From positions 1 through 32,358 of the IMG/VR virus record IMGVR_UViG_3300044724_000125: a DNA stretch of 32,358 bases, one strand, 5' to 3'. Both the position numbers and the translations under genes were made by a program. The notes below the pieces were generated by a model. It had not been told where the DNA came from. It did not search any database and saw only the letters and a program-made list of their open reading frames with translations. The DNA is from a virus (taxonomy: Duplodnaviria; Caudoviricetes). Shown here piece after piece: positions 1 to 20,514 of this stretch (the first letter of the stretch is position 1; each line of letters starts with the position of its first letter).

Positions 1-37
1 TGACCACTACCGAACTTGGTTTCAAGGAAAATATGGT

Positions 38-295
38 ATGAAATTATACGATATCAAGGTTGGTCGAAAGTGGGTGTTTATTCGTTCAAAATCTCACAGG
101 GCGAGACTTCCACTTGCGAAGTTTAAAACACAAGCGTTTGTTCAATGGCATTGTGATGCAAGAACTCACGCTAGTTCAGAGACTTACGCTGAAACAGGTA
201 GGTATAAAAAGAGCAGAGGTTGGTGGAAAAACTATGGTTTTGAATCTAATCCTGCAGATGTAAATTATGACCGAGGACACTTGATATGGAAATAA
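38..295 (+). CDS. hypothetical early protein (85 aa, basic)
   Basis: ATG-initiated ORF overlapping the next ORF; no recognisable motif. Confidence 0.55.
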   Translation: MKLYDIKVGRKWVFIRSKSHRARLPLAKFKTQAFVQWHCDARTHASSETYAETGRYKKSRGWWKNYGFESNPADVNYDRGHLIWK

Positions 296-507
296 ATGAA
301 AACATATGCGTTTGTGAAATGTGTAAACTTCCTTCCGATTTCGGTAAAGAAGTTTCTCGTGAAGTAAACGACACCGAAGGTTTTATAACTTATGAGCATG
401 GAATCATGTATGGTTCTGTGGAAGATGAAGATACTTATTGGTGTAATGATTGTTCTGAATCAGAAACAAAAGCTTACAACGAATGGTTTTGGGGGGAAAC
501 TACATAA
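286..507 (+). CDS. small acidic protein with two CxxC pairs (possible Zn ribbon)
   Basis: GAGGA RBS upstream; CEMC and CNDC motifs. Confidence 0.6.
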   Translation: MEINENICVCEMCKLPSDFGKEVSREVNDTEGFITYEHGIMYGSVEDEDTYWCNDCSESETKAYNEWFWGETT

Positions 508-535
508 ATATAAATACTTACCTGTGCTATCTCAC

Positions 536-565
536 TTGACAAGAGGTAGCACTTGGGGGTACAAT
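536..565 (+). promoter_or_regulatory. sigma70-type early promoter P1
   Basis: TTGACA (536-541), 18 bp, TACAAT (560-565) in an intergenic gap. Confidence 0.75.
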
Positions 566-615
566 GCTCGGCAACTAACGACTGCTCACTCAGTCATTTT
601 AAAGGTACTTACTTT

Positions 616-876
616 ATGAAAACAAAATGTGAAAATCCTAATGGTCTTGCGAATATGAAAGCTATTAAAGATAAAAAAGCTAAAAAGCTAATGATATTTA
701 ACACTCTATGGAATGTTAAACAATACTTAGCTGAACATAATTATCGTTTATTATCTAATCATTCTTTTAAAAATGATGTTTATACTTTGTATAACAGAGG
801 TTCTAAAATTATTTCTGTTAAGCCTTTCATACAAAACTATGACCATATTAAATATCAAATCGAGGTAATCAAATAA
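616..876 (+). CDS. hypothetical early protein; start reassigned to ATG 616
   Basis: AAGGT upstream of ATG 616; the track start at 553 lies inside the promoter. Confidence 0.65.
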   Translation: MKTKCENPNGLANMKAIKDKKAKKLMIFNTLWNVKQYLAEHNYRLLSNHSFKNDVYTLYNRGSKIISVKPFIQNYDHIKYQIEVIK

Positions 877-1148
877 TGAAACAAGGACACTTAATAAATA
901 AAATTAATAAACTTATCCCTGTTGCAAAAGCAACACCTATGTCAGAATTTTATGATGACGATAGTACAGGTATTTGGATAAGAGGTAGTGAATATTCCTA
1001 CAAAGGTTCTTTATCTTATGATAGATTATTATTTGAATATTACTTAGAGGACGAAGCTGTTCATCCAGACTTAGCAAAAATAATAGAAGATGCTAATTGG
1101 ATGTGGGAACCTTATGATGCAGGTACATTAATGCTTTATCCTAATTAA
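876..1148 (+). CDS. hypothetical early protein (90 aa)
   Basis: GAGGT RBS, TAATG stop/start coupling. Confidence 0.75.
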   Translation: MKQGHLINKINKLIPVAKATPMSEFYDDDSTGIWIRGSEYSYKGSLSYDRLLFEYYLEDEAVHPDLAKIIEDANWMWEPYDAGTLMLYPN

Positions 1149-1171
1149 ACTATTTACCCCTGTGTTCTCAC

Positions 1172-1201
1172 TTGACATGGGGGTTGCTTTGATGCTAAGA
1201 T
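1172..1201 (+). promoter_or_regulatory. sigma70-type early promoter P2 (extended -10)
   Basis: TTGACA (1172-1177), 18 bp, TG-c-TAAGAT (1196-1201); flanks homologous to P1. Confidence 0.7.
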
Positions 1202-1206
1202 AGTGG

Positions 1207-1425
1207 CAACTAAATGAGCAGTAAGCAAAAGAGCTGAAAATAAAATCAGATAAAATAATAATGCTTACTTCTAAGGGACATGGAGAAACACCAGCGTAAT
1301 AGCGAAAACTTGTAAAACTATTTCAAAATAACCTGCATGAAACTCCCCCGACTTAAACATTCGCTATAGATTTGTTTTAGAAATTACCATGTGCTAGTTC
1401 ATGGTTAAAAACTAACTAGCACCTT
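1207..1425 (+). ncRNA. putative structured leader/ncRNA A
   Basis: No long ORF; stems AGTAAGCA(1220-27)/TGCTTACT(1262-69), GGGA-CATG(1275-82)/CATG..TCCC(1336-47), ATAGCGAA(1299-1306)/TTCGCTAT(1360-67), terminal pseudoknot 1386-1421. Confidence 0.5.
1386..1421 (+). promoter_or_regulatory. H-type RNA pseudoknot PK1
   Basis: S1 ACCATG(1386-91)/CATGGT(1400-05); S2 (T)GCTAGTT(1392-99)/AACTAGC(A)(1414-21); loop TAAAAACT. Confidence 0.7.
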
Positions 1426-1454
1426 TATTAACCTTAATAACTATGGAGATAGAT

Positions 1455-1880
1455 ATGTCAAAATTGATATACAGCAGAAATGGTAGCGAGACTACTGAAA
1501 GCATTACTAATGCACAACCTCAGATTCAAGCAATATGGAATCAAGCACATAGATTTGGTGCGAATATTGTAAGAGTAAGAGCAGAAAAATTACGCTATGG
1601 TAATAGCACAGGTAAAACTTTTAATTCTTTTCATGAAGGTTATGTATCAGTCTATAAGCAAAAAGATAAAATTCATGAGAGTGATGCCTTATACTTTGCT
1701 AGAAAAATACCTCTTACCAAAGTAAACAAAGGTATGCAAATACTTGAGATAGCATCTAATGTAGATGTCCAAGATACTTTAGATACTATTGATACTATTC
1801 AATACTACTCAGAGACTTCTTTCTTAGGAAGACTTTACAATAGAATTGTTTACGGGACACCAATGTCTATAAATTCCTAG
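1455..1880 (+). CDS. hypothetical early protein; start likely ATG 1455
   Basis: GGAG at 1445-1448 precedes in-frame ATG 1455. Confidence 0.75.
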   Translation: MSKLIYSRNGSETTESITNAQPQIQAIWNQAHRFGANIVRVRAEKLRYGNSTGKTFNSFHEGYVSVYKQKDKIHESDALYFARKIPLTKVNKGMQILEIASNVDVQDTLDTIDTIQYYSETSFLGRLYNRIVYGTPMSINS

Positions 1881-1894
1881 ATTAAATTCGGGGT

Positions 1895-1923
1895 AAGTGT
1901 GGGTATCACTTGAAAACTACCCA
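1895..1923 (+). promoter_or_regulatory. H-type RNA pseudoknot PK2 (followed by T7 tract, may double as terminator)
   Basis: S1 AAGTG(1895-99)/CACTT(1907-11); S2 (T)GGGTA(1900-05)/TACCC(A)(1918-23); loop GAAAAC. Confidence 0.62.
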
Positions 1924-1956
1924 TTTTTTTAACGCTAATATTTTTGGAGATATATT

Positions 1957-2409
1957 ATGGCACAGATGAGAGTAAAAGACCAAGACCTAGTTGTAGAACA
2001 GGTTGTAGAAAAGATTGAAGCTACTGAACTTAATAAGTTCAAAGCTCGTAAAGATGTTCAAGCAGTTCAATCTGATATTGAAGCAAGAATCGAAGTAATT
2101 TCAAGACTTTTTGAACAATACAAAAAGCTTGAAGAAAATATCAAAGCTGAACAACAAGAACTAAAAGATTTAGTCCAAGGATTTCAAAAAGCTAATGGTT
2201 TTGAATATAGTTCTTATGCTACTAAACAAGGTATATGGTTAGACAATATTTCAACATATGGTGTTTCAATCCCTGAACTAAAACTTGTATGGCAACTACC
2301 TTATACAAAAAAGCATGAGATATCTACTAAACTCAGACTTCAAACTATGGGTGGAGACTTTGATGTCTACAAACTTATTGAGGAGTTGACAGCAGAGTTT
2401 AGTTCGTAG
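1957..2409 (+). CDS. hypothetical coiled-coil early protein (150 aa)
   Basis: GGAG RBS; heptad-like helical N-terminal half. Confidence 0.8.
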   Translation: MAQMRVKDQDLVVEQVVEKIEATELNKFKARKDVQAVQSDIEARIEVISRLFEQYKKLEENIKAEQQELKDLVQGFQKANGFEYSSYATKQGIWLDNISTYGVSIPELKLVWQLPYTKKHEISTKLRLQTMGGDFDVYKLIEELTAEFSS

Positions 2410-2415
2410 TATAAT
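2386..2415 (+). promoter_or_regulatory. sigma70-type promoter P3
   Basis: TTGACA (2386-2391), 18 bp, TATAAT (2410-2415). Confidence 0.8.
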
Positions 2416-2418
2416 AAT

Positions 2419-2703
2419 TTTGTAGTTAGAAAGTGAGCCTTATAAAATCCTTTGGAGTCCATTATAAATCCTAGATTAAATTCGGGGACATGGAAAACAT
2501 CAAGGTTAGGATAAAAGTAAATGAGAACTAAACCACCATGCACTAACTACAAATTTGTCCGAGGAACTATCTGCGAGTTTCACAATGATTGTTGCAACAG
2601 TCGTGGAACTAAAGAAGAGAAGGACAAACACTCATCAGTCCCTAGAGTGTGAGTATAAATCTAGGATAGGGGTAGGTTGGTAGTCCTACACAAAAAACTA
2701 CCA
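2419..2703 (+). ncRNA. putative structured leader/ncRNA B (~285 nt)
   Basis: Begins at the expected start of P3; 11-bp stem 2419-29/2543-53, long hairpin 2554-2628, two pseudoknot candidates 2630-2665 and 2672-2703. Confidence 0.55.
2672..2703 (+). promoter_or_regulatory. H-type RNA pseudoknot PK3
   Basis: S1 GTAGG(2672-76)/CCTAC(2685-89); single T; S2 TGGTAGT(2678-84)/ACTACCA(2697-2703); loop ACAAAAA. Confidence 0.7.
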
Positions 2704-2724
2704 CTTAATTTATAGGAGATAAAT

Positions 2725-2973
2725 ATGCAAACTATATATCAAATCGTTGAAGAGGTATGCTTGAGAGACTTTCCAATTCTTGGAAGACTATCTGAAGCAC
2801 AACAAAATAAATTTATTGACAACATCTATCAAGATGTATTGTCAGGTGATAATCCTTCTGAGATTGCAGAGCATGAACTGTATGATTACATTGAAGAGTT
2901 TATTGTAAAGTCTATTATAAAAATGTTAATATCTTTGGAGGAAAACTCTAATGCCTTACAAAACATGTCATAG
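2725..2973 (+). CDS. small acidic hypothetical protein
   Basis: AGGAG RBS; no motif. Confidence 0.7.
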   Translation: MQTIYQIVEEVCLRDFPILGRLSEAQQNKFIDNIYQDVLSGDNPSEIAEHELYDYIEEFIVKSIIKMLISLEENSNALQNMS

Positions 2974-3415
2974 TTGTGATGAAACCAAAGAATTAAACAA
3001 GGATAATTTTCCACTTAGAAAAAATAAAAATGGTGTTGGTTATCGAGCACAATGCAGGTTATGTTATAACAAATTAAGAAGAACAAATCCAAGATATGCT
3101 AGAAAAAAATCTATTCAATTAGCAAAGGACAGGGCAGAGAAAAAAGGACTAGAGTTTAATTTATCATTAGATAAAGTTGTGTTTCCTGATACATGTCCAA
3201 TACTTAACATCAAGTTAGAACATGGCAATCAAGATTGGCAAACCTCACCATCTATTGATAGAATAGACAATAGTAAAGGATACACACTTGATAATATTAT
3301 TGTAGTGTCAGCACTTGCAAACAGTATTAAAAACTGTGCTACTTGGAAACAAATAATACAAGTAGGAAAATTTTATAAAAATTTAGAAAAGGAGAAGAAC
3401 CATGCCAAAATATAA
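2951..3415 (+). CDS. HNH/His-Me-like endonuclease with N-terminal Zn ribbon (possible homing endonuclease)
   Basis: CHSC...CRLC; CPIL...SPSIDRIDNSKGYTLDN...AN..K motif typical of phage HNH-like nucleases. Confidence 0.7.
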   Translation: MPYKTCHSCDETKELNKDNFPLRKNKNGVGYRAQCRLCYNKLRRTNPRYARKKSIQLAKDRAEKKGLEFNLSLDKVVFPDTCPILNIKLEHGNQDWQTSPSIDRIDNSKGYTLDNIIVVSALANSIKNCATWKQIIQVGKFYKNLEKEKNHAKI

Positions 3416-4127: not shown

Positions 4128-4402
4128 TGTATGCAGAAAAACCAAAACCAGTAAACAAATACTTACAAGCAACTGATGTAGAGATAGCTGAAGTTGAAAT
4201 GGATAGGAAGTTCGAGGAACTTTATGATGGTATCGAAGATTTAAATTATAAACAAGAAGATTTTGAAGCTGATATTGATACTGTTCAATCAGATGTGGCA
4301 GATTTAAACATTGAAGTTAGTGGTTTGTTAAGAACTGTAGAAGACTTACAAGATACTATTCAAGAACTACAAGATAAACTAGAGGAACTAAATGATGAGT
4401 GA
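4127..4402 (+). CDS. highly acidic coiled-coil protein
   Basis: About 28 D/E in 91 aa with heptad hydrophobics. Confidence 0.7.
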   Translation: MYAEKPKPVNKYLQATDVEIAEVEMDRKFEELYDGIEDLNYKQEDFEADIDTVQSDVADLNIEVSGLLRTVEDLQDTIQELQDKLEELNDE

Positions 4403-4670
4403 AGACTATGACTATAAAAAAGCTACTATAATAGTAGAAAAAGCAATATCAAAAGCATTCTTTAATGGCTATGGCTTAATGTTTAAGTACCACAAGATTG
4501 AAACAGGTGAGTACGAACAACGAATGCTGTTGACTGTATCAGATATTAAATACAACCATGATGATGAAATTTTAGTAGGTGGTTGTATTAATAATGATGG
4601 GGATTACAGACAATTCTTTTTAGAAAACATGGAGTCTGTTAAACCTTTTAAGTATGTGTCTATTGACTAA
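4392..4670 (+). CDS. stand-alone WYL-like domain protein
   Basis: F.Y....G....R....L.G.....YRQFFLENM pattern resembles the WYL R-x-F signature; GAGGA RBS. Confidence 0.5.
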   Translation: MMSEDYDYKKATIIVEKAISKAFFNGYGLMFKYHKIETGEYEQRMLLTVSDIKYNHDDEILVGGCINNDGDYRQFFLENMESVKPFKYVSID

Positions 4671-6824: not shown

Positions 6825-7042
6825 ACTACATATACGAAAGGATGATGGCTGAAGGAGAGACAGCTATCTTTGACCGAAATGAACTCAGAAAGTTTGAAAA
6901 TTATGTAGCTAAAAACTATACAGAATTTTATGAAAGCAAAGCAGGATATGAGATAGAAAAGCAAGGAGAAGAGTTCCTTGTTACGCTGTTTAAAAATCCT
7001 GTTATAACAATGGAAGATATTTTGCTTGACATTAGAGATTAA
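6821..7042 (+). CDS. hypothetical protein; start likely ATG 6821
   Basis: AGGAGG RBS and ATGA overlap. Confidence 0.7.
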   Translation: MNYIYERMMAEGETAIFDRNELRKFENYVAKNYTEFYESKAGYEIEKQGEEFLVTLFKNPVITMEDILLDIRD

Positions 7043-7054
7043 TCAGTGTATAAT
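7026..7054 (+). promoter_or_regulatory. consensus sigma70 promoter P5 for the replication module
   Basis: TTGACA (7026-7031), 17 bp, TATAAT (7049-7054). Confidence 0.88.
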
Positions 7055-7089: not shown

Positions 7090-7542
7090 ATGGCAGTATT
7101 AGAAGGAAAAGCCTACTGGGCATCAGTAACAACACCAAACACTACGTTTGAGCCTGTGTATACAGTTGACTTAGTTGTGGGAGAAGATGTTGCCGATGAG
7201 TTTCAAGCTCGTGGGTTTAAAGTAAAAGACTTATCTGTTAAGGATGAGAGTGGTGGTGCGACACCTATTGGTAGAGCACTTACAATAAAACGTAAAGTTA
7301 ATGGACCAAATGGCATGGTAAGAAATGCCCCAAAACTTTTCGATAAAAATAAAGAACCATTAGATGCTATTGTTGGTAATGGCTCGACTGTTAAAGTACA
7401 GTATAACGAGTGGGAAACCGACAATAAATATGGTAGCTTTAAAGGCTTGGATTTTCAAGCTATGCAGGTACTTGATTTAGTATCTTTAAAATCACAGGAT
7501 GGCTCTGAGTTAGACCCATTCGGTGATGGAGAAGAATTCTAA
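7090..7542 (+). CDS. ssb: single-stranded DNA-binding protein (T7 gp2.5-like)
   Basis: G.A.WA.V..P, P..FD.....L...VGNGS.VKV, A.QVLDLV; acidic tail ending in Phe; position before primase-helicase. Confidence 0.8.
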   Translation: MAVLEGKAYWASVTTPNTTFEPVYTVDLVVGEDVADEFQARGFKVKDLSVKDESGGATPIGRALTIKRKVNGPNGMVRNAPKLFDKNKEPLDAIVGNGSTVKVQYNEWETDNKYGSFKGLDFQAMQVLDLVSLKSQDGSELDPFGDGEEF

Positions 7543-13232: not shown

Positions 13233-13488
13233 ATTTAATGAAGACAAACTATTACAAGAACTTAAAGGATACATTGATGCTACATACAGTCAGCATTATG
13301 CATCCGATAAATATCAGGCTACCGATGTTATTATTGATTCGGGACATGGTGAGGGCTTTAGTCTTGGTAATATTATGAAGTACGCTAAACGCTATGGGAA
13401 TAAAGACGGAAAGAACAGAAAAGACTTGCTAAAAATATTACACTATGGTATAATTATGCTTGACATACATGATAAGGAGAACACGTAA
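13222..13488 (+). CDS. DUF3310-like protein (putative nucleotide kinase); start likely ATG 13222
   Basis: HY...F..GN.MKY..RYG.K....DL.K..HY; GGAG RBS before 13222. Confidence 0.72.
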   Translation: MNYKFNEDKLLQELKGYIDATYSQHYASDKYQATDVIIDSGHGEGFSLGNIMKYAKRYGNKDGKNRKDLLKILHYGIIMLDIHDKENT

Positions 13489-17500: not shown

Positions 17501-19465
17501 CTATAATTTTGGTTGTAGTTCTCTCATTTCAATCAGTGTTTCTAAACTCTGACCTGCCATCTGATAAAAGCCTTCGATGTTATCTGACAACATATTGTTG
17601 GCATAGATATCTGTAGACTCGTACCATGTTTCTTGGTCGGGCAATGTTACTAACCTATAGTTATTAAAGTTAGGAACAAACCCCATGTAAGCTATGATAG
17701 TATTCTCTGACCCATACTCACCCGTCTCTTCTTGTTTAGCTTCAACATCATCTTGTGCATCTTGTAAGTTCTGAGCTATGACATTAGCTACAGTTTGTTC
17801 AGCTTCTGTGGCTGATGTATCTGTAGAGACTGACACATCTATTTGACTTTGTAAAGTTTGAGTAGTGGTTGTATCAACTGCGACACTAACTGTTTCAACT
17901 GTCTCAGCTTCAACACTTGTAGAGCTTGTAACACTAGCACTCATATCTAACACTTGATTGTTTTGTGCAGTAGAAGATGCAAATTGTTCTGATATACTAG
18001 GTGAGTTACTGGTACTTACACCACCACCAGAATTAGACGATGATACGCTAGAAACTCCTGTCGTTCCACCTGTAGCGTGTATAGAGTTTCCTGATGTAGT
18101 CCCACTAACACTAGACTTAGCTGTGCTTAGAGTAGACGAGACAACACGTAACGCTGTTTCTTTACTTATTGAACTCTTTTCTTCTGGTAGTACAGCACCA
18201 ACAACAACCTCTTCTTCTATTACCTCTTCTATAACCTCTTCTTCTTCAACGAGTTCTTCAATAAGTTCTTCTTCCGGCTCTTCTGCATACGCAAGTTCTT
18301 CTTCCACAATTGTCTCTTCCTCAAACCACTCCTCCACTTCTTCAATAAATGTTTCTTGAAATACAAACTCCTCAATCATTAACTCTTCAATTGGTATAAA
18401 GACTTCTTCTTCACGTATAAACGGAAGAGGTTCTACAAATTCTTCAAGTGGTTGAAACTGTTCAAAGATTATCTCTTCTTCAAACACGTATTCAGGTTCT
18501 TCAAAAGTATCATACTCAGGTTCAAAGATATACTCTTCAAATATTTCTGGCTCTTCGAAAGTGTCATACATGTCATACTCTTCATAACCATAGTTAAACA
18601 GTTCTTCTTCGTATCCGTAGTCAAAGTATTCTTCTTCTTGATAGTAGCCTATGTCTTCTTCTTGTCGATAGCCTTGACAAAATGGTCCATACTGTGGGTC
18701 AAGGTCACATTGAAAATCATCATATGCTTCCCAATACCCTGCACAGCTTACATCGTTGAGTGCATTACTACAATCAATACCACCCTTTGTACTATACAAC
18801 GAACCACCATCTTCTAAGTTTTGATTTTTATCTGAGTTATTCCAATCATAGTTGTAACAAGATGATGTATTCGTAGAGCCTGTGTTACATTCATCGTGGT
18901 AGTAATAGGTGTATATCTCATCAGACTTACCTTGCTCACCAATTAAAACATCGTGCTGAATAATATCTAACTTACCATATCTAAACTCATAAGAGTCATT
19001 AGTCCAAAGTATTACTTCAAAGCTGTTATCAGATGCACGATTGTATTCACGCATATCATACCAACCGAAGACTGCTTTATCACTAAAGTTTTTTGCTAAC
19101 ATTTTAGAGTTGTTATCTCTAATGAGGTCAGTCCAGAATGGAAAGAGTGTATAGTTGTATTGTGGAAGTGGGTCAGGTGTATAGTCACCACAGTAATTAT
19201 TATAGTTTATATTACCTGTACCCAAACCAAAGTGAAGACATCCATTTGTAGCCATACGAGCAGATGTAAAAGAGTCTCCATAAAAATCAAATGTAAAATC
19301 TAAATTAAATGCAGACGAAAGCTGGTCGTCTCCAGAGTTTAGATTGGTTGTATTTGATTCGTTTGTGAGGTCTACTAAAGACTGATTGCCTTCATAGATA
19401 TACTGACTAAAGACATTAATACTTAAGAGACACGCTACTGCGTAGCATAGAATTCTTTTTTGCAT
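17501..19465 (-). CDS. exported protein: nidogen(NIDO)-like domain, Cys motifs, Glu-rich and Ser/Thr-rich regions
   Basis: Signal peptide; GDD......L.F.F.FYG..F.....TNG...F and PFWTDL; long Glu-rich tract. Confidence 0.7.
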   Translation of the reverse strand: MQKRILCYAVACLLSINVFSQYIYEGNQSLVDLTNESNTTNLNSGDDQLSSAFNLDFTFDFYGDSFTSARMATNGCLHFGLGTGNINYNNYCGDYTPDPLPQYNYTLFPFWTDLIRDNNSKMLAKNFSDKAVFGWYDMREYNRASDNSFEVILWTNDSYEFRYGKLDIIQHDVLIGEQGKSDEIYTYYYHDECNTGSTNTSSCYNYDWNNSDKNQNLEDGGSLYSTKGGIDCSNALNDVSCAGYWEAYDDFQCDLDPQYGPFCQGYRQEEDIGYYQEEEYFDYGYEEELFNYGYEEYDMYDTFEEPEIFEEYIFEPEYDTFEEPEYVFEEEIIFEQFQPLEEFVEPLPFIREEEVFIPIEELMIEEFVFQETFIEEVEEWFEEETIVEEELAYAEEPEEELIEELVEEEEVIEEVIEEEVVVGAVLPEEKSSISKETALRVVSSTLSTAKSSVSGTTSGNSIHATGGTTGVSSVSSSNSGGGVSTSNSPSISEQFASSTAQNNQVLDMSASVTSSTSVEAETVETVSVAVDTTTTQTLQSQIDVSVSTDTSATEAEQTVANVIAQNLQDAQDDVEAKQEETGEYGSENTIIAYMGFVPNFNNYRLVTLPDQETWYESTDIYANNMLSDNIEGFYQMAGQSLETLIEMRELQPKL

Positions 19466-20514
19466 TGCCTTTTAGTTTTAGTTTTAGTTGTATAAATAAC
19501 TTTGACTGCCCCAACAACATCTTTGTTTATCTTGTCTCTGTTAGGATTTCTGTCGTGTGTGCATTGCTTTATAAAAAGTTTTTCTTGTTCTTTAGCATCG
19601 GGTCTTTTAGATTTGTTTTCTGCCCAAGCTTTAGTTGCTTCTTTACCTATCTGACCTTGGTAAGGGCAAGGAGTACCAGCCATTTCCATAGCCTTAAATA
19701 CTCTCGGGTCTTGACAAAGTATAGATACTGAAGCCACTTTCATACCGGTATCATATAGATACTTGGAAAGTTTTAAGCGTTCACAGTTCTCGTCAGTTAC
19801 AGTTGCTCCTGTAGAGAACCCAAATACTTGCCCTTGAAAAGCACCAGAACGACCTACAGTACAGAGGTCTTGTGAGTAAGACATAATACTAGGTGCTATA
19901 GCAGAAGCAGGAGGTGCTTTGCTTTTTACGTTCTGGTTGATTGTTTGAGTAGAGTTGGACTCGTTAATATTTCTGTTAGTGTTATCAGACTTGGTATTGT
20001 TATTATTGGTATTAGTATTGTCAGTAGTAACATTAGAGTCTGAAGTCGATGTATTAACGTTAGTATTGTTATTAGTATTTGTATTGTTACTAGTAGAATT
20101 ACTGTTGTTATTTACGTTTTGATTTACTGTAGAGTTTACAGTAGAGTTAGATGTAGACGTAGATGTGTTGACGTTGTTATTATTGTTAGTATTTGTCGAA
20201 GTGTTATTTGATGTCGAAGTATTTACATTAGTATTATTTGAAGTATTAACATTAGTATTATTATTAGTGTTAGTATTTACATTTGTATTGTTATTAGTAT
20301 TGGTGTTTGTATTTGTGTTAGTGTTTGTATTATTATTGGTGTTAGTATTTGTAGTCACGGTAGTATTAATGGTAGTTAAACCATTGTCTTCACAATACTG
20401 TGTACCGGCTGTACAATCACCAACGGGGTCTGCTTGTACACCAAACGAAAACGCTAGTAATCCTAATATAAATATTGGTCCTAAAAAATCTTGGTTCAGC
20501 CCTCTCCTTGTCAT
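19435..20514 (-). CDS. exported protein with Asn/Thr repeats and Cys-rich C-terminal domain
   Basis: Signal peptide ending VQA; ~150 aa of NTN repeats; APS...DLC...D.NCERLKL...LCQD.RV..AM..AGTPCP. Confidence 0.8.
   Translation of the reverse strand: MTRRGLNQDFLGPIFILGLLAFSFGVQADPVGDCTAGTQYCEDNGLTTINTTVTTNTNTNNNTNTNTNTNTNTNNNTNVNTNTNNNTNVNTSNNTNVNTSTSNNTSTNTNNNNNVNTSTSTSNSTVNSTVNQNVNNNSNSTSNNTNTNNNTNVNTSTSDSNVTTDNTNTNNNNTKSDNTNRNINESNSTQTINQNVKSKAPPASAIAPSIMSYSQDLCTVGRSGAFQGQVFGFSTGATVTDENCERLKLSKYLYDTGMKVASVSILCQDPRVFKAMEMAGTPCPYQGQIGKEATKAWAENKSKRPDAKEQEKLFIKQCTHDRNPNRDKINKDVVGAVKVIYTTKTKTKRQCKKEFYATQ
19930..20375 (-). repeat. low-complexity coding repeat (Asn/Thr)
   Basis: Imperfect GTATT/GTGTT-rich repeats on + strand encoding NTNTNNN/NTNVNT. 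Confidence 0.9.

Follow-up and report, generated by a model that had tools for sequence, protein, structure and literature searches.

The window analysed here, a linear virus record of 32,358 nt (IMG/VR IMGVR_UViG_3300044724_000125, Caudoviricetes; completeness 62% by CheckV), carries three small intergenic RNA pseudoknots near its left end, PK1, PK2 and PK3 (Table 1). The second is called window PK2 below, to keep it apart from the PK2 of transfer-messenger RNA (tmRNA). Judged from sequence comparison, PK1-3 are copies of a portable element of about 30 bases that is distributed phage-wide and is predicted to fold as an H-type pseudoknot. The structure is real and the family is uncatalogued in Rfam; the function is predicted from the contexts in which copies occur. 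We give about an even chance to the reading that the knot is a portable nuclease barrier, which marks and protects the 3′ end of the RNA upstream of it.

Three pseudoknots and the family they belong to

The original prediction had placed an H-type pseudoknot of like geometry, with fully covarying stems, ahead of each of three early genes, and all three were present in the sequence. In PK1, stem 1 pairs 1386-1391 with 1400-1405, U1392 forms loop 1, stem 2 pairs 1393-1399 with 1414-1420 and loop 3 spans 1406-1413. The corresponding elements of window PK2 are 1895-1899/1907-1911, U1900, 1901-1905/1918-1922 and 1912-1917, with U1906 unpaired, and those of PK3 are 2672-2676/2685-2689, U2677, 2678-2684/2697-2703 and 2690-2696. 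Each knot contains 10-13 base pairs, with a G-C pair topping stem 1 and loop 1 consisting of one U; AAACUAC is carried by window PK2 and PK3, and PK1 has a CUAG variant. The predicted offsets of 34, 34 and 22 to the ATGs at 1455, 1957 and 2725 were borne out (33, 33 and 21 nt lie between), as was the AU-rich spacer leading to the ribosome-binding site (RBS), which is unstructured. Window PK2 starts 14 nt past the stop codon of open reading frame (ORF) 1455, is followed by seven U and is the most divergent of the three copies (E = 0.21 against a model built partly from window PK2 itself). Stop-codon read-through or frameshifting at this copy was rejected, with the upstream frame stopping inside the knot and the next gene lying in another frame. 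ViennaRNA gave one stem or the other, and because the program does not fold pseudoknots, this has no bearing on the knot.

A strict Watson-Crick scan of both strands of the window returned 4 matches, which were PK1-3 and one within the polymerase gene; allowing one G-U pair raised the number to 21. When the three intergenic regions (697 nt) were dinucleotide-shuffled, the mean was 0.035 matches and 0/1000 shuffles reached three, so that the number observed exceeds chance. Shuffles of bases 1-3000 gave a mean of 0.13 matches, with 1/300 reaching three. The scan descriptor was taken from the geometry of the finding itself, after it had been seen; this control is therefore post hoc, and the tests on homologs are the stronger evidence. 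A model made from 23 lineage copies recovered PK1-3 on the + strand and no further convincing copy in the window.

For the two genes behind PK1 and window PK2, sets of 28 and 20 loci were located, and nearly all of these loci had a knot at the same place, with different stem 1 sequences. The family consensus shows hardly any variation in stem 2 and the A-rich loop (UG-N-UAG / AAAA-CUA-N'-CA), and stem 1 is freely variable, its length ranging from 3 to 8 bp and its pairing sometimes being weak. Patterns directed mainly at stem 2 and the tail of loop 3 returned 121, 123 and 122 viral stretches (collection estimates ~490, 190 and 180), counts that overlap and contain chance matches; some of the matches are long perfect hairpins on both strands, counted twice and mostly in the unclassified group. 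A narrower single pattern gave 29 matches in GTDB, many without stem 1, and because one pattern only was used this count does not show absence from cells.

The viral matches yielded 268 unique instances, 250 of them with enough flank for a stem-1 test. Stem 1 was present in 169 of the 250, compared with 52 on average and 72 at most in upstream shuffles. Since stem 1 was not built into the search, its covariation is independent of the search pattern. Among 44 unique copies in a fixed register, two stem-1 positions outside the pattern paired in 42/44 each, and three stem-1 positions pooled were paired in 111/132 cases versus a permutation maximum of 83. When 33 of these 44 copies were aligned with PK1 and PK3 (35 rows), four Watson-Crick pair types occurred at one column, and the covariation score was matched by 0/500 shuffles. 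Stem 2 was assessed in an alignment (A1) of 23 copies hand-picked from 50 candidates, where it was 96.9% paired with double-sided changes at two of 7 pairs. A1 scored stem 1 at just 54% paired, since the register of this stem differs by 1-2 nt from copy to copy, and for this reason the fixed-register subset was used.

These covariation tests indicate selection on both stems: in stem 1 it acts on pairing only, and in stem 2 and loop 3 it extends to sequence. The claim of fully covarying stems thus held for stem 1, which is free in sequence and covaries, but not for stem 2, whose remaining five pairs are nearly invariant. The Rfam check named with the prediction returned no match on the knots at E <= 10 and hence no family for them. 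A literature search found no paper on the element; PMC10690425, accessible in part, may hold an unnamed candidate.

Contexts of the family and a proposed 3′-end cap

The surroundings of family copies were surveyed after 17 copies inside ORFs had been removed, and the 152 copies were grouped into 80 context clusters with overlapping labels. An RBS-led ORF lay downstream in 38/80 clusters, a stop codon <=12 nt upstream in 16/80, a tRNA 4-11 nt downstream in 5/80, the end of the coding piece of a permuted tmRNA in 4/80 and a promoter -35 box 1 nt downstream in 2/80. Stop codons clustered next to the knot, with 23/152 within -2..11 nt of stem 1 versus 0-12 in six further 14-nt bins. The knot is not tied to particular genes, and many unrelated ORFs stand behind it.

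In the window, PK1 lies after a promoter and ~175 nt of conserved non-coding sequence, and PK3 after a perfect promoter and 250 nt holding modules B, C and D (Table 1). Relatives gain, lose and exchange such non-coding modules, and some have two or three knots per spacer. Module B was used as an anchor independent of the knot: 50 loci were fetched on its core alone, and removal of nine without a downstream ORF in view and five duplicates left 36. A knot stood between module B and the next ORF at 32/36 loci and in the 260 nt upstream of B at 3/36; the downstream genes were diverse and unrelated. At the 4/36 loci without a knot in between, the closing stem of B runs directly into the U-rich spacer and RBS.

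A link to tmRNA was also found. Permuted tmRNAs were identified with Rfam at five phage loci (L056, L155, L349, L355 and L381), and at these the stem 2 of the knot begins 10-20 nt past the tag stop. Four of the five copies (L056, L155, L349 and L355) are hybrids that combine the family stem 2 with the AACAGAA loop seen in cellular PK2, and this combination speaks for kinship and not for convergence only. In two-piece tmRNA, PK2 has been placed after the tag frame in the coding piece (PMC3985003). A knot of the same build occupied the PK2 place in 28/29 alphaproteobacterial tmRNA loci, and in 19/28 it was followed directly by ACU or ACC; this search was anchored on the loop motif, with G-U pairs allowed. 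The PK2 of two-piece, alphaproteobacterial tmRNA (3′ end RF01849) resembles the phage knot in its stem 1 of 4-7 bp, short pyrimidine-rich loop 1, stem 2 of 5-8 bp, A-rich loop 3 and ACY tail, and PK1-3 share this H-type geometry. In cellular PK2, however, stem 2 is variable and GC-rich and the fixed part is a CAACAGAA loop, whereas in the phage family UG-N-UAG/CUA-N'-CA is constant and the knot occurs by itself behind genes and other RNAs. PK1-3 lack the CAACAGAA loop 3 and do not follow a tag frame, a position taken only at the five tmRNA loci. No tmRNA was found in the window by Rfam search. At five further loci (L062, L070, L076, L108 and L112) a phage permuted tmRNA has a family copy downstream of it, and at L062 and L108 that tmRNA ends in a knot of its own, giving two knots in series.

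At tRNA, promoter and tmRNA-end positions, only the upstream RNA can benefit from the knot. Because these discriminating contexts, together with the proximity of stop codons, point to the upstream RNA, the reading as a 3′-end cap is favoured. Among the three roles suggested in the original prediction, a nuclease block that defines stable RNAs is the one that the contexts support. In the mechanism that we propose, transcription of the early region would start at sigma70 promoters and be carried out by the host polymerase, and the RNA would be cut just 3′ of the knot, leaving a new 3′ end. With a tRNA next in line, RNase P would make this cut; ahead of an RBS, the likely enzyme would be RNase E, acting in the AU-rich spacer. 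Host 3′-5′ exonucleases would then trim back and stall at stem 2. The stem may be braced by a predicted triplex: adenines of loop 3 would pack on the G-C pair that tops stem 1, and the U of loop 1 on the U-A pair at the base of stem 2. These four elements appear to map onto the quintuple-base motif of H-type pseudoknots, with the U-A pair in the place of preQ1; the motif has been described for preQ1-I and for the dENE stability fold, and preQ1 replaces the cross-strand pair in it (PMC11625349). In the window, PK1 would cap module A, window PK2 the message of ORF 1455, and PK3 the B-C-D array. The knot and its spacer probably also act as shared homology for the swapping of flanking modules and genes.

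Several points weigh against a 3′-end cap. The commonest context is an RBS downstream, 27/80 clusters show none of the recognised contexts, and the promoter context comprises 2 clusters only, one of which consists of 7 near-relatives. At 29/36 module-B loci the knot ends <=45 nt from the ATG, and this arrangement would suit a function in the downstream message just as well. A 3′-end cap requires a cut downstream of the knot, which for the window copies is putative, and the RNA-library data are assembled contigs only. The stem-2 sequence of cellular PK2 differs from that of the family, and the likeness may in part reflect a generic H-type optimum. The literature search found no paper in which tmRNA PK2 or a similar knot stops bacterial 3′-5′ exonucleases, and RNase R is reported to help degrade Caulobacter tmRNA (PMC3985003).

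A wider proposal is put forward tentatively, as possible but rather doubtful. The knot would be a general-purpose exonuclease-resistant phage RNA module, a bacterial-world counterpart of the viral exonuclease-resistant RNAs (xrRNAs) and of ENE caps that is related to tmRNA PK2. In this lineage it would close off arrays of small structured RNAs (A, B, C and others) that are swappable and driven by promoters; situated in the earliest region, these RNAs would form an arsenal for host takeover or anti-defence, shuffled like accessory genes.

The stability of RNA ends in bacteria and phages is usually attributed to hairpins of the terminator or REP type. If the capping role is true, phages would have a different solution for RNA ends, a ~30-nt pseudoknot that many of them reuse as a terminal module, and the last pseudoknot of two-piece tmRNA would gain a testable role. 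The knot is small enough for tests with purified nucleases and for use as a synthetic RNA stabiliser. It is useful as a marker too, since phage non-coding RNAs that lack annotation, for example modules A-C, come to light in the sequence upstream of it. The contribution of the window is twofold: the connection with tmRNA PK2 and the placement of a knot at the close of swappable non-coding arrays in this marine podophage lineage (the 32/36 loci above).

Three further groups of loci were noted during the survey. At L353, L358, L364, L372, L378, L386 and L421, an ORF ending LAA-stop, in the manner of an ssrA degradation tag, is followed by the knot and, 1 nt on, by a promoter; Rfam found no tmRNA at these loci. 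At L068, L075, L099 and L365, a promoter-driven structured RNA of 70-130 nt lies between a tRNA gene or promoter and a knot with tRNA-Glu, and this RNA had no Rfam match at those of the four loci tested. At L181, L202, L243, L325, L333 and L437, a common hairpin with a GAAA...GGAUGGGCUG-like loop stands just 5′ of the knot; its stem looks covarying, it is often near tRNA genes and it is uncatalogued.

Alternative roles and comparison with known systems

A serious rival is that the knot shields the downstream mRNA by blocking RNase E, or a 5′-3′ exonuclease, as it scans from a processed 5′ end. The rival is serious because the RBS context at narrow spacing is the commonest and H-type knots of similar size impede RNase E; on balance we consider it unlikely, and it is compatible with 3′ capping, so that both could hold. 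H-type pseudoknots with 8-15 coaxial pairs impede scanning by Escherichia coli RNase E according to size, with a modest effect at 11 (PMC9943677), and the 10-13 pairs of PK1-3 fall within that range. An RBS-led ORF lies downstream on the strand of the knot in 70/169 stem-1-positive copies versus 10/152 on the opposite strand, the spacing from knot to ATG is narrow, and the AAACUAC tail is common to the Xrn1-blocking coremin motif. However, shielding of this kind brings no gain where a tRNA lies 4-11 nt on, a promoter lies 1 nt on or a tmRNA coding piece ends. Stem 1, which is met first from the 5′ side, is the variable and sometimes weak stem, and the hairpin that coremin requires is absent from nearly all copies, as given below. 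The translational operator of the original prediction, where a gp32- or RegA-like phage protein or ribosomal protein S1 would bind the knot and set translation of the next gene, fits poorly, and we regard it as improbable. It would agree with the conserved sequence of stem 2 and loop 3, which might be a binding site, with the unstructured AU-rich spacer, and with the resemblance to the leader knot of T4/T2 gene 32, in which two coaxial stems are likewise followed by an AU-rich spacer before the RBS (PMC3014915). Yet the knots end 21-33 nt before the ATG with the RBS outside them, and family copies precede many unrelated genes as well as tRNAs, promoters and tmRNA ends with nothing to translate, a distribution that suits a regulon poorly too. 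The gene 32 knot also differs in its setting: the phage knot is multi-copy, gene-independent and not in the leader of the single-stranded DNA-binding protein (SSB) gene. This gene served as a control, using the lineage-copy model and a check of its leader; it has its own promoter at 7026-7054 and a leader without a pseudoknot, which speaks against autoregulation of the gene 32 type.

A transcription pause or leaky terminator, with stem 2 as the terminator hairpin, is in our view still more improbable. The bases downstream of knots are U-rich, window PK2 alone of the three having seven U, and knots do occur after stop codons and before promoters, but >=6 U in the next 8 nt were found in just 15/127 copies, a terminator scan called none of PK1-3, and the tRNAs 4-5 nt downstream of some knots require read-through. 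There is very little to recommend the knot as an anti-defence decoy mimicking a type III antitoxin, as also suggested originally. ToxI, CptI and the pseudo-ToxI of phage PhiTE are similar small H-type knots with an A-rich loop, CptI having a 1-nt loop 1 (PMC5086642), and knot copies sit in the early region, sometimes two or three per spacer. But the tandem direct-repeat array, paired toxin cleavage sites and toxin gene of ToxI systems are missing, with no tandem direct repeats in the window and no Rfam antitoxin match. AAAU, the ToxN-type site and the sole site type tested, was on both flanks in 4/127 copies, and a decoy leaves the use as tmRNA PK2 and the placement before tRNAs unexplained. 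We hold it just as improbable that the element is mainly a recombination cassette acting at the DNA level, with the fold secondary. The same knot stands before different genes and the same gene behind different knots, and the PeSL cassettes of T4-like phages are exchange points with similar features: repeated intergenic elements, a hyperplastic early region and genes exchanged around them (PMC4122927). PeSLs are terminator-promoter composites, however, whereas the unit repeated here is a pseudoknot whose stem 1 covaries, and structured non-coding modules are among the cargo exchanged. Stem 1 changes its sequence yet keeps its pairs, which lowers homology, and the knot is oriented with transcription.

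Gene 32 autoregulation, ToxI mimicry, the preQ1-I aptamer and coremin each fail a tested defining feature. Coremin (xrRNA-C/xrRNA-WCC; PMC10321173, PMC10520033) has in common with the knot a short first hairpin, an A-rich spacer with AAACUAC at its end, A-minor contacts (predicted) to stem 1 and, as proposed for the knot, a role as a nuclease barrier. The spacer end, which in coremin pairs with or contacts loop 1, was found as AAACUAC in window PK2 and PK3 and as the CUAG variant in PK1. However, the second hairpin that coremin requires after the spacer occurred in 4/127 copies (shuffle mean 8) and in none of PK1-3, and the first loop of coremin is 4-6 nt (YGAD, YGNNAD, G-started WC) versus a stem-1-closed loop of 7-8 nt in PK1-3. 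Stem 2 is ~3 bp in coremin versus 5-8 bp in the phage knot, and coremin itself belongs to eukaryotic RNA viruses and acts against the 5′-3′ exonuclease Xrn1. The preQ1-I aptamer (RF00522; PMC11625349) shares a 5-bp P1, U(U) atop P1, a UAG pairing with the AAAAAACUA tail and the quintuple-base-motif geometry. Its specificity cytosine, before the 3′ strand of P1, was C in 8/127 copies and U in 96; there was no RF00522 match on the knots at E <= 10, and the downstream genes were without a family. Unlike in preQ1-I, a U-A pair is predicted in the place of the ligand, and there are no queuosine genes in the window. A weak PreQ1 match from Rfam at 791-846 was set aside because it falls inside an ORF.

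The early region of the window and its neighbouring genes

Table 1. Positions of the pseudoknots and of nearby features in the window.
Feature	Position	Strand	Description
Sigma70-type promoter (predicted)	1172..1201	+	TTGACA-18-TAAGAT, extended -10 TG; consensus match
Module A	1208..1381	+	Conserved structured leader or small RNA, then variable hairpin; alignment of 11 loci
PK1	1386..1421	+	H-type pseudoknot; 6-bp stem 1, U loop, 7-bp stem 2, 8-nt A-rich loop
ORF 1455	1455..1880	+	141-aa conserved phage protein; 259 homologs
22-nt imperfect-hairpin repeat	1872..1893	+	Overlaps ORF 1455 stop; direct repeat D17
Window PK2	1895..1923	+	Divergent H-type pseudoknot; 5-bp stem 1, U loop, 5-bp stem 2
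ORF 1957	1957..2409	+	150-aa phage protein; 28 related loci
Perfect sigma70 consensus promoter (predicted)	2386..2415	+	TTGACA-18-TATAAT, 12/12 match; overlaps ORF 1957 end
Module B	2419..2553	+	11-bp closing stem, conserved core, variable apical hairpin
Module C	2555..2627	+	Long irregular hairpin; z = -2.96, 1/200 shuffles as good
Hairpin D	2630..2654	+	Short, 5′ of PK3
PK3	2672..2703	+	Canonical family member; 5-bp stem 1, U loop, 7-bp stem 2, 7-nt A-rich loop
ORF 2725	2725..2973	+	82-aa phage protein; relatives have other genes behind same knot
SSB gene	7090..7542	+	T7 gp2.5-like; Foldseek E = 2.3e-6 to T7 gp2.5

A family scan of the proteins showed that the window encodes a T7-like primase/helicase, a DNA polymerase and nucleases. 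The primase has 45-47% identity to those of pelagiphages HTVC115P, HTVC104P and HTVC103P, and two ORFs, at 13488 and 15560, we take by eye from their sequence to be ribonucleotide reductase subunits. No RNA polymerase was matched among 35 window proteins scanned, and strong sigma70-type promoters occur at the left end (536, 1172, 2386, 5130 and 7026); for these two reasons, we read the left end as the early region of a marine podophage that would use the host polymerase. A 40-nt repeat (507-546 and 1143-1182) surrounds the -35 box of two early promoters and looks like a PeSL-like promoter cassette, and relatives, such as L001 at 1-1800, have a long left-end region that is almost without genes and carries promoters upstream of what are the first ORFs of the window. 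Rfam gave no gathering-level match anywhere in the window, and blastn of two non-coding regions against cultured phages returned nothing, or short weak matches only.

The promoter upstream of module A likely drives module A, PK1 and ORF 1455, and a similar promoter stands at the same place in most relatives. Of 9 predicted pairs in module A, 7 showed compensatory change (11 rows). Its part at 1208-1345 has a covarying long stem with invariant GAGAAACACCAG and CUGCAUG blocks, and the module accompanies ORF 1455 in most relatives, making an RNA-protein pair possible. The closing stem of module B is invariant, with no covariation in 7 rows, and its core was matched in 50 viral stretches; module C is present in some relatives and absent in others. 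Modules A, B and C had no match in Rfam. The 22-nt hairpin repeat at the end of ORF 1455 has a second copy within module B (2466-2487, 95% identity). In relatives, two or three different knots are interleaved with hairpin modules (L045 4500-4700, L016 4560-4720 and L013 3850-3970), consistent with shuffling at knot points.

Contigs from all seven RNA runs cover modules B and C; they carry no strand, end or level information. In run X19, the contigs over 2433-2634 are far deeper than their flanks and have a loose adaptor end at 2433. These deep contigs and those over 2498-2627 in run X9 cannot rank expression, and relatives share the modules; 2419-2627 (B and C) is a candidate for an abundant phage small RNA. 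Contigs end at 2704 (X3) and 2706 (X1), just past PK3, but an X1 contig also spans 2708 at similar depth, X2 and X9 contigs continue to 2727, and spacer variants branch exactly there; because of this read-through and branching, the stops are not evidence of a 3′ end.

ORF 1455 had no Pfam or PHROG family and no Foldseek match at E <= 0.001 with a pLDDT-67 model. The JGI label 'tetrahydromethanopterin S-methyltransferase subunit A' on three of its homologs was disregarded as lacking Pfam support. ORF 1957 had no Pfam or PHROG family above cut-off, ORFs 1455 and 1957 gave no Atlas lead, and ORF 2725 had no Pfam or PHROG family. The 'WYL-like protein' mentioned in the original prediction found no backing in Pfam or PHROG, its presumed candidate, ORF 4392-4670, being without a match. 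On the - strand, ORFs 19435-20514 and 17501-19465 contain a long Asn/Thr repeat and a long Glu-rich tract.

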